Assembly (NCBI GenBank): GCA_951406725.2
Contig: OX597831.1
Span: 50,282,001 to 50,346,000, forward strand
DNA from: Octopus vulgaris
Taxonomy: Eukaryota
Direction of reading: 5' to 3'
DNA length: 64,000 nt
In this document: positions 60,648-63,394 of the stretch, piece by piece
Layout of the letters: each line of letters starts with the position of its first letter
How positions within the stretch are numbered: the first letter of the stretch is position 1
The notes under the pieces: generated by a model
The model's input: only the letters and a program-made list of their open reading frames with translations
The model's database searches: none
Told to the model about the DNA's origin: nothing
Translations under genes and position numbers: made by a program

Positions 60648-60878
60648 CACACACTCATATAACGTATATCAGCATTATGTAGAAATGGATAATAGAATGT
60701 TTTAATAAAATATGAGTTTTTGTTTTGTTTTGTGTTTTGTTTTTTCGTGGGAGGAGCCTTATCTTATTGAGCCTCAGCATTTTTACATGGAACACGGATT
60801 TTTTCCCCTGTTACCCACTTTAAGAAATATTATATTAATGGACTCTTAGGGAGATGATAGGTAAAAATTGACTCTAGA

Positions 60879-62494
60879 CACTTATCGTGAGTTGATTTTT
60901 CCTTGTTACTGCGTTACACGTAAATTTTGTTAAACGTTTTTTCTTGTACGGTCGCGCGGGGTTTGTCTGTCGGAGTTGAGACAGACAAGGACGGCCCCTC
61001 CCTGATGGGAGAGACGGCTAGAGTATTCGAAACCCTATCGGACTTGTCTACGTTTGAGGAGGAGTTGGAGGAAGCGGTGAGGAGAATGGACCAGAAATTA
61101 GGTTATACCTATGCTGGAGTAGCTAAAAAATCGGAGGAGAGAGAGTTGGACTTAGCCAAGCTGCCAAGTTACCAAAAGTTTATTAAGAAGGACGGCGGTG
61201 AGGTGGAATTAGCACCGCCACCAAAGCGCAGAGAATGGTACCAGAAAAGAACCATTACATACAGGGTCTACGCAAACGGAAAGACAAAGATCGAAGTGGT
61301 GAATATGGAGTGGATAGAGGAGGCTCTGAGAAGAACAGAAGAGGAAATAATATTTCTGACTAGAGGTACAAGCTATGGTACTGTGGTAGTACAGTTCAAG
61401 AGTGAGAATATAGCAAGGAGGATGGCGGCTAAAGCAGTGAAATCTGAGAGGGTATTCCTTTTGCCCTCTTACTTAAATAGGAAAATTACCAGAATAAGGG
61501 TCGAGGGAATACCCCCAAATGTCGAAGCAGAGTGGATTGTGGCAGCTATAATTAGCGGTCATGAGGATGAAGTGGACATCCTCCATGCCACGGTAAAGAC
61601 CGAGGGCTGGAGGGGCGCAGCACTGGATCTGAATGTACAAGCAGAAGATGATGTACTGGAGAACCTAACAGAAAATATCAGATTGGGAGACGTAATCATG
61701 AGAGTGTGGGTGGAGGGCAGAGCTCCACGGTGTTACAAGTGTGGCCTGAGGGTCCACATAAGAGCTAACTGCCCTCCCCCAGAGAAAGAAATGGATGCGG
61801 AGCCACGAAGAGAGGCGGGAAAAGAACAGAAACCAGAGGAGAAGGAGACAATAGAAGAAGAAAATTCACAAGAATGGGAAGAAGCCAGGAAAAAGAGGAA
61901 GAGGAGAATAAGAGGAAAAGAAAACAACATGGAACCCCAATCCACCCCAACACCACCCACACCCTCTGAGTCCCACCCTCTCCCTGCAGACAGTGAACCC
62001 ACCCGCTCCCCTCCAACAAGAAAACAGAAAAGAAAAGACACACAAAACCAAGACACAAAAAATGAACCCAGGCCAAACATTGTATGTATGACGGGAAAAG
62101 AAAAGATTAAAAAGAAAATGGAAGAGTATCAATGGTGTGACAGAGGAACGATCAGGTATGCAGTAATTGGAAAAGAACGAATGGACGAGTTTATGGAGGT
62201 GTGTGAAAGGGAGGATTGGGAAGTAGGTGAAGTGAGAATGGTTGAAAAAATCATGAGGGATTTGGAAGAGACGTTTGAAAAAAGGATGGAGATGGAAGGA
62301 TTTTGTATAGGAACTGAACAAGGAGCATTTGTGTGGGATTAACAACTAAAGGACAGGTAAGTGATGCTAGCGGATGGGGCCGTTAGCATCACTTTCATAA
62401 TATCATTTTCAAAATTCATCTTTCATTCTTTGTAATTGTGATGTTCTATGTCCCCAATGTTTGTAGTGTCCCCTCGTGGGTAATAAAGAAAGAA
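60879..62494 (+). mobile_element. ORF1-only non-autonomous non-LTR retroelement (HAL1-like architecture), apparently complete
   Basis: 16-bp TSD AAAAATTGACTCTAGA at 60863-60878 and 62495-62510; one ORF; AATAAA at 62482; no ORF2 sequence. Confidence 0.88.
61005..62342 (+). CDS. Gag-like/ORF1p nucleic-acid-binding protein with CCHC zinc knuckle (L1/Tx1-type ORF1-like), 445 aa from first ATG
   Basis: Uninterrupted ORF; RRM-like segments (GTVVVQFKSE..A; RIRVEGIPPNV), V.VEG.APRCYKCGLRVHIRANC (CX2CX4HX4C), W...RKKRKRR basic patch, P/S/T-rich linker. Confidence 0.85.
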   Translation: MGETARVFETLSDLSTFEEELEEAVRRMDQKLGYTYAGVAKKSEERELDLAKLPSYQKFIKKDGGEVELAPPPKRREWYQKRTITYRVYANGKTKIEVVNMEWIEEALRRTEEEIIFLTRGTSYGTVVVQFKSENIARRMAAKAVKSERVFLLPSYLNRKITRIRVEGIPPNVEAEWIVAAIISGHEDEVDILHATVKTEGWRGAALDLNVQAEDDVLENLTENIRLGDVIMRVWVEGRAPRCYKCGLRVHIRANCPPPEKEMDAEPRREAGKEQKPEEKETIEEENSQEWEEARKKRKRRIRGKENNMEPQSTPTPPTPSESHPLPADSEPTRSPPTRKQKRKDTQNQDTKNEPRPNIVCMTGKEKIKKKMEEYQWCDRGTIRYAVIGKERMDEFMEVCEREDWEVGEVRMVEKIMRDLEETFEKRMEMEGFCIGTEQGAFVWD

Positions 62495-63394
62495 AAAAAT
62501 TGACTCTAGATGAATGTTGCTAATTTATATTGTAGATGCAGTGTAAGTTTCTACATAGTACAATCCATGTTTCTGTGGCGCAGAATATTCTGTCTCAGAG
62601 AATCCAGTGCACAGTTGATGTTTATTTACGTTATTTACATATCGGCCATCGAAGAAAGAAGTCAAATGGGGTATGATTTTAACTCAAAAGGTAAAATTCC
62701 ATAACTAAATACCGTAAATCCGGTATACGCAATAGAAGCAGTATTAAATTAAAGTAGCAATCTATGTATCATAATCAATGTTTATACACAATTTATACGC
62801 CAGTTATTGAAGAATTCAGCTGAAGCTCAGAAAGGTTGAAATACATTTCATGTTCCCACTGGCCACTGCTGGGAACACTTTTCCCCTCTCCCTGACAATT
62901 ATTGTGTTCTTAACAGAGTATGTCATTAAGAGATAATATCTCAGGAGAAATACCACAGTAACTGGCTTATGAGCGGTGTATATGCATTAACCATGATGCA
63001 TAGATGGCTATATTACATACTGTAAAATATTCCGTAGGACTCTAAAGAAAACTTCAATCAATTTGCTTTTCTCTTGATATATTCTTACTGGGCATCAGTT
63101 CACCGACCTAATATCGCCTCTCCTTAAACCAGTTATAATATTTATTTATTTATTTATTTATTTAGCGTTAAATGTATTACTGAGTCCGTGTCAGTAACAC
63201 CTTGCAATGACTTCACACAATCTTCTATATTTTAAAAAGTGTAATATCAGCAACAGTAAATAGCTACTTATAGCAACGACAAAAATAATCCTATCCCGAC
63301 AAAATCCTATATAAATCTTTAGGTTAGTTAGTTGTTTGAAATTATGGAATATCGGGTTAAACTCATAATATTTACTTTTGATATTTTTCATCTC

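Follow-up and report, generated by a model that had tools for sequence, protein, structure and literature searches.

A stretch of 64,000 nucleotides of the Octopus vulgaris genome (referred to as the window) contains a 1,616 bp unit that encodes an ORF1-like protein and lies between two copies of a 16 bp sequence, which raises the question of how such a unit was copied and whether it stands alone. The first-pass annotation had read it as a member of a recently mobile, non-autonomous retroelement family that makes its own RNA-packaging protein and borrows the ORF2 enzyme in trans.

The window copy and its predicted protein

The proposed boundaries of the unit (Table 1) were confirmed, since the flanking 16-mer occurs exactly twice in the window; a shuffle control yielded no matches in 100 shuffles. 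The earlier estimates of a leader of ~125 nt, a trailer of ~150 nt and an AATAAA signal likewise agreed with the measured values. Among the 12 ORFs of at least 120 aa in the window, ten were microsatellite read-throughs and one was a 134-aa frame with a Thr run, leaving ORF1 as the sole long intact non-repetitive frame, as had been claimed. Moreover, no endonuclease or reverse transcriptase match was found within the 64-kb window when the ORF2 of the LINE described below served as query.

Table 1. Parts of the window copy (window positions) and loci of a second Tx1-like LINE family.
Feature	Position	Strand	Remark
Target-site duplication, 5′ copy	60863..60878	+	Exact 16-bp repeat
5′ leader, 126 nt	60879..61004	+	Homologous in other full-length subfamily A copies
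ORF1, 445 aa, uninterrupted	61005..62342	+	17 private substitutions (5 synonymous, 12 nonsynonymous)
Predicted RRM, aa 72–159	61218..61481	+	Structural match to La RRM
Second predicted ferredoxin-like (RRM/ACT-type) domain, aa 160–239	61482..61721	+	Structure model
CX2CX4HX4C zinc knuckle, aa 243–256	61731..61772	+	Private Val at conserved Gly
Charged/Pro-rich linker	61785..62066	+	Low pLDDT, weaker selection
C-terminal alpha/beta domain, ~aa 355–435, no assigned family	62067..62309	+	pLDDT ~90
3′ UTR, 152 nt, ending in shared tail	62343..62494	+	AATAAA at 62482; short internal deletion
Target-site duplication, 3′ copy	62495..62510	+	Exact 16-bp repeat
Second Tx1-like LINE loci	G000 C50:5791-59107, C47, C4:93.80-93.83 Mb

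The zinc knuckle had been described as intact, and its Cys/His spacing is indeed kept, but the private Val replaces a Gly that is present in 140 of 145 sampled knuckles. Pfam zf-CCHC did not match the knuckle of the window copy, and a Pfam search with the window protein returned nothing significant. The 3′ tail is short by ~13–15 nt that all nine other aligned tails possess, and 17 private changes were counted in ~1,300 sites. Contigs from run X2 (organism B) and from run X6 (organism A) span both insertion junctions; the two runs belong to different studies, and one of them could itself be the source of the assembly. Taken together, the private changes, the knuckle Val, the tail deletion and the presence in two runs indicate that the window copy is modestly old and probably inert, i.e., a solo, ageing and ordinary family member that would no longer be a source of new copies. 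The recent mobility ascribed to it therefore does not hold for this copy, which is ~1.3% diverged and damaged. The proposed empty site (GT/AAAAA) is an inferred one and not a family consensus; no element-skipping joint, as expected of an empty allele, was seen among the 15 of 18 contig joints listed, and no RNA run containing the element was present among the sequencing runs listed. In run X1, a 54-bp deletion relative to the window was observed in the 3′ flank (62599–62652).

An AlphaFold2 model of the window protein, built on 74 aligned sequences, reached a mean pLDDT of 80, with aa 50–260 and 360–435 near or above 90. Foldseek retrieved tandem-RRM proteins (47 matches at E ≤ 0.001), while VIA returned the La RRM as best structural match for aa 72–159 (Z 9.9, rmsd 2.3, 81 aligned) and ACT/RRM-type folds for aa 160–239 (Z 8.4, rmsd 2.4, 76 aligned). 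With a family profile that matches nucleocapsid knuckles, the predicted architecture comprises an RRM, an RRM-like domain, a CCHC knuckle and a further domain of 80 aa. Judging by the model and the knuckle, ORF1 is thus a type I ORF1p (RRM + CCHC), a type described as consistent with the Tx1 clade in PMC5203782. No match to Transposase_22 (i.e., type II ORF1p) was found in the 74 aligned proteins. A word-based protein search with the whole ORF gave nothing at E ≤ 0.001, and a HMMER search with the core gave 294 matches; of the ten relatives looked up, eight bear a name, each of them an uncharacterised protein from Octopus sinensis, O. vulgaris, O. bimaculoides or Argonauta.

The additional folded domain suspected at the C-terminus, for which the first-pass annotation had no name, is indeed predicted to fold (pLDDT of 85 when modelled alone), and no family could be assigned to it. 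It diverges fast between subfamilies (17–53% identity outside A). Foldseek yielded nothing at E ≤ 0.001, VIA a best Z of 4.7 and Atlas no match, nulls that indicate neither a new fold nor absent homology. Its strand/helix order resembles by eye that of the C-terminal parts of the LINE ORF1 and of lineages D and F, with a non-significant hhalign probability of 1.2%.

A dispersed ORF1-only family and a Tx1-like LINE with the same tail

A DNA search of the genome with the unit revealed 58 matching places among 40 scored candidates, the closest other copy being 93% identical. Exact flanking repeats of 11–33 nt were present at 12 of 30 fetched loci, representing 11 different sites (two of the repeats, at loci L011 and L015, are ambiguous and overlap with leader sequence). 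An exact search with the subfamily A tail found 13 places, i.e., 11 family members and two SINE-like repeats; four of these members were 5′-truncated (107–415 nt), two of them with duplications of 16 and 12 nt. When the genome was searched with the protein core, 13,037 candidates emerged at first look, and all 150 that were scored were at least 79% identical. When the ORF1 matches of at least 55% identity (n = 113, of which overlapping loci may count a few twice) were followed downstream, 100 continued into the tail, none into an endonuclease and two into neither, with 11 too short to call. Endonuclease-linked ORF1s (n = 32, with the same possible double counting) were all at most 41% identical, although the searches score best candidates only and could have missed a closer bicistronic parent. 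The non-autonomous family that had been postulated is thus borne out by the many dispersed copies, which lack ORF2 and show separate target duplications and 5′ truncations.

Subfamily A is dispersed and low-copy; its insertion sites do not match the target of the young LINE described below, and one close relative sits inside the Helitron-like carrier at another position. In a tree, subfamilies A, B and C form one clade (97/95) beside an O. sinensis protein (100/99), and lineages D and F are placed in other parts of the tree, close to proteins of O. bimaculoides. A test of one origin for the ORF1-only lineages gave an AU p of 8e-6, with starred branches compatible with one origin, 11 rows of uncertain status in the other group and the "F" row L278 labelled without a confirmed tail. 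Three copies (L021, L015 and L099:3502-4863) are mosaics whose core and C-terminal domain come from different subfamilies (for L021, 69% identity in the core and 90% in the C-terminal domain), which suggests recombination among ORF1-only lineages. Some copies also lie in other repeats. Four subfamily A/B copies (L003, L004, L005 and L007) share one junction inside a repeat, adjacent to a stretch that resembles a Penelope-type nuclease region, and because of this common junction they were probably carried passively by that repeat. Six others (L010, L011, L021, L035, L037 and L225) lie inside a second repeat at several junctions within ~60 bp, a site that the subfamily A leader resembles.

The core of ORF1 showed dN/dS values of 0.10–0.28 when the window copy was compared with 24 copies. 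Among 14 close copies, dN/dS was 0.22 for shared and 0.67 for private substitutions, indicating that selection acted during copying of the source elements and little after insertion. ORF1 is under purifying selection in its source lineages. The C-terminal domain likewise gave a shared dN/dS of 0.27, and selection was weaker in the linker, where A-runs cause frameshifts in many copies. Bao and Jurka reportedly described purifying selection on the ORF1 of HAL1 in 2010.

A young bicistronic LINE encodes an ORF1 that is 33% identical to the window protein over 262 aa (E 1e-45), and an ORF2 with Exo_endo_phos (APE), RVT_1 (RT) and zf-RVT domains according to Pfam. The closest solved protein to this ORF2 is human L1 ORF2p (E 7e-65; R2 follows at 5e-26), and one of 25 ORF2 homologues bears a name, i.e., "Transposon TX1 149 kDa protein" (26% identity). 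Its ORF2 domains, a type I ORF1 (RRM + CCHC) and a preference for a target sequence fit the Tx1 clade, so that we regard the LINE as Tx1-like. Of its 3′ ends, all 40 scored were 99–100% identical, and 28 of 30 lay at an ACAYGG(A/C)GGAAA site or a one-base variant, with 12 nt of target duplicated. The 3′ end of the LINE aligns with the tail of the ORF1-only units. Since this tail is also present on an abundant SINE-like repeat (window 8311 and 8495 on the + strand, 57257, 24606 and 24563 on the – strand; L226 and L228), the tail alone does not name the partner. A predicted stem in the tail showed no compensatory change (0/10 pairs).

Only one of 20 (L280–L299) or one of 30 (L191–L220) young LINE copies had a full-length ORF1, and full ORF2 was found in 10 of 20; ORF1-only units were full length in 18 of 67, and assembly homopolymer errors may contribute to these frame losses. 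The LINE ORF1 contains 13 A-runs of at least six. Three bicistronic families were seen in all, with ORF1s 34–38% identical to the window core. The second, another young Tx1-like LINE (L234–L271), shows (ATT)n behind a related tail at the 3′ ends that were read; it builds tandem arrays of its own with a 5.87-kb period (ten matches on the 73-kb contig C50; Table 1). The third (L272/L050; G000:C7:13.49 Mb) adjoins a carrier end and has another divergent ORF1 frame upstream.

Arrays in a Helitron-like carrier and the proposed mode of copying

Six regions fetched around clustered matches proved to be head-to-tail arrays of 5–14 full-length ORF1-only units with a ~1.75-kb period, three of which end directly on the bicistronic LINE. 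All six lie inside one 1.05-kb repeat. Helitrons are recognised by a 5′ TC, a 3′ hairpin followed by CTAG, and insertion between A and T with no target duplication, and since the repeat displays each of these features it looks like a non-autonomous, Helitron-like carrier. A Rfam search on the flanks of five loci revealed no ribozyme, with microsatellite-driven matches below the cut-offs only.

Subfamilies B and C, sisters of A, and the deeper lineage D lie at the young LINE's target in this carrier. The sequence upstream of the LINE 5′ end (n = 30) was carrier in 6 cases, another LINE in 5, unit B in 4, unit C in 5 and unit D in 10; an ORF1-only unit thus preceded the LINE in 19 of 30 cases, and directly so in 15 of 20 longer regions (full-length LINE copies), in samples that are best matches to a query from an arrayed copy and may favour arrayed loci. 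At least 166 tail-to-target junctions were counted, against none in the control. At L105, the carrier just downstream of the target encodes a decayed ORF1-like fragment (32–39% identity over 28–53 aa), so that a retroelement captured long ago may have given rise to the target. A second array-forming site was observed at L031 (G000:C6:85.70 Mb), where two A units, one F-type unit and one truncated unit form a chain with copies of a different 10-nt target in between.

The reading that we hold with considerable confidence is that the window unit is an ageing copy of an ORF1-only family with a Tx1-like LINE tail, likely mobilised through target-primed reverse transcription by an ORF2 enzyme borrowed in trans, and likely packaged as RNA by its own protein. 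The anatomy of the units and their common target sites point to such trans mobilisation, in which ORF2p would recognise the common 3′ tail and the predicted RRM-RRM-CCHC protein would package the RNA that encodes it. As far as the junctions can tell, arrays would grow by repeated single insertions, followed by local lengthening through unequal exchange. The LINE and D would insert at the regenerated target, and because their insertions regenerate it, later copies could land in front of them; B units would for the most part attach in front of a B or C unit already present, at its 5′ end. Carrier-derived leaders (~24–75 nt) occur at six array junctions, and 5′-truncated units at several; such varied leaders and truncations suggest that separate RNAs served as templates, of which some began in the carrier. 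Local duplication is apparent from all C2 units forming one group and from a repeated three-unit block in the C8 array. Template jumping in a single event was also considered; the target duplications between units (LINE, D and F) favour sequential insertion, and the B–B junctions are compatible with either.

A DNA-level origin of the arrays, in which the ORF1-only units are real but one loaded Helitron was copied and its content expanded mainly by unequal crossing over, appears unlikely. It would account for the same carrier flanks around all six long arrays, for a nearest neighbour within the same array in 31 of 52 B units, for C2 units that average 99.2% identity to each other, for the identity of C8_1 and C8_4, and for several arrays ending in the same C-type unit. 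However, the carrier flanks are 93–95% identical and the B units 97–99%, the nearest neighbour lies in another array for 21 of the 52 units, truncated units occur within arrays, and the carrier houses inserts of at least five types that differ in their 5′ junctions. Filled and empty carriers also interleave: empty ones are common (20/30 and 22/30 in two samples), the nearest flank to that of a LINE-filled carrier belongs to an empty one in 22 of 25 cases, and filled carriers form no clusters on the carrier tree (26 changes of fill state vs. a shuffled mean of 26.1), on a nearly star-like tree that makes this a weak test.

Far less probable is that the host has kept the window copy as a gene, comparable to the domestication of L1TD1 or ZCCHC3. 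The uninterrupted ORF, the junctions shared by contigs of two runs, two studies and two organism labels, and the ZCCHC3-like clusters returned by Atlas (at 0.88–0.90) might be taken that way, but the 5 synonymous and 12 nonsynonymous private changes resemble those of other copies, the knuckle Gly has been replaced, and the sequence is multi-copy with no selection on the locus itself. Moreover, other copies (L007 and L021) also have an open ORF1, showing that an open frame at ~1.3% divergence needs no selection. Finally, the unit might have arisen once from a bicistronic LINE by deletion or splicing, or from a host gene with introns as a processed copy. A deletion product would fit the LINE ORF1 homology and LINE-like tail, but all these origins are extremely improbable given dozens of same-architecture copies at separate insertion sites with many target duplications and 5′ truncations, selection on shared substitutions only, no close bicistronic relative (0/113), and the supported A/B/C clade with its O. 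sinensis sister.

Relation to known ORF1-only elements

The family is an ORF1-only element of the HAL1/HeT-A type, with a parent that was Tx1-like and not of the mammalian L1 kind. The kinship to vertebrate HAL1 suggested earlier thus stands as regards an ORF1-only LINE derivative, and fails as regards the parent. According to PMC5786205, ORF1-coding non-autonomous LINEs include HeT-A (Jockey), HAL1 (L1) and Ag-Sponge (CR1). Mammalian HAL1 resembles the octopus family in being a non-autonomous LINE derivative with ORF1p only (PMC5753468 and PMC5786205), but its ORF1p is of type II (coiled coil, RRM and CTD; Transposase_22), whereas the octopus protein is of type I (RRM + CCHC), with a Tx1-like parent and an octopod host. 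Furthermore, HAL1 has a poly(A) where the octopus element has a short A-rich end behind a conserved tail, and the octopus sister subfamilies are site-associated and arrayed. Ag-Sponge of Anopheles is likewise an ORF1-coding non-autonomous LINE of an invertebrate (PMC5786205), but belongs to a different clade.

With HeT-A and its partners TART and TAHRE in Drosophila, the octopus units have in common that they encode ORF1 alone and stand head to tail in arrays of one direction, interspersed with autonomous partners (PMC5537684). In contrast to the telomeric HeT-A of the Jockey clade, the octopus arrays are interstitial, occur on many chromosomes in a Helitron-like repeat with target duplications, and have no demonstrated host function. 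It is tempting, if rather doubtful, to see here a HeT-A/TART-like division of labour off the telomeres, with ORF1-only units and Tx1-like LINE as mutual helpers and not as parasite and host: several old ORF1-only lineages and the LINE would use the Helitron as a safe harbour, and the LINE, with an A-run-rich ORF1 that is usually frameshifted, would receive ORF1p and perhaps also transcription from the stacked units.

PMC4494074 offers a parallel for the target, in that Tx1-clade machinery is aimed at a non-autonomous DNA transposon by Xenopus Tx1L in Tx1D and by crocodilian SINEU-3 in Mariner-N4, with tandem insertions that sandwich a target duplication. The octopus target differs in being Helitron-like, and, unlike the non-coding SINEU-3 elements, its ORF1-only passengers code for protein and stand in arrays with as many as 14 units. 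Kojima's crocodilian study had posed filled versus empty carriers as a matter of hitchhiking versus independent insertion (PMC4494074, section 14).

In line with the first-pass annotation, which knew of no such element from cephalopods, no description was found in the literature searched (including PMC11203168), while Repbase, Dfam or the deposited repeat library may hold these consensus families. The O. vulgaris repeat paper reports 13 recently active L1-Tx1 families (PMC13282606), with the term "ORF1" absent from its main text and one supplement, and the term "Tx1" is absent from the octopus brain LINE paper (PMC9115989).

The surprising part of these findings lies outside the window, where the arrays share a Helitron-like repeat with a site-specific LINE; the window copy itself is ordinary. 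To the three clades (Jockey, L1 and CR1) listed in PMC5786205, the family adds a case from a mollusc that is Tx1-like and has three or more deep lineages, and it shows that ORF1 retention is selected. The arrays provide a natural system for asking for what reason a non-autonomous element requires an ORF1p of its own, and by what steps trains like those of HeT-A arise from site-specific insertion where no telomere is involved. Octopus annotations list these ORFs as uncharacterised "CCHC" genes, so that they inflate the gene sets, and structural variation is likely to arise from the arrays of 10–30 kb present at many loci.
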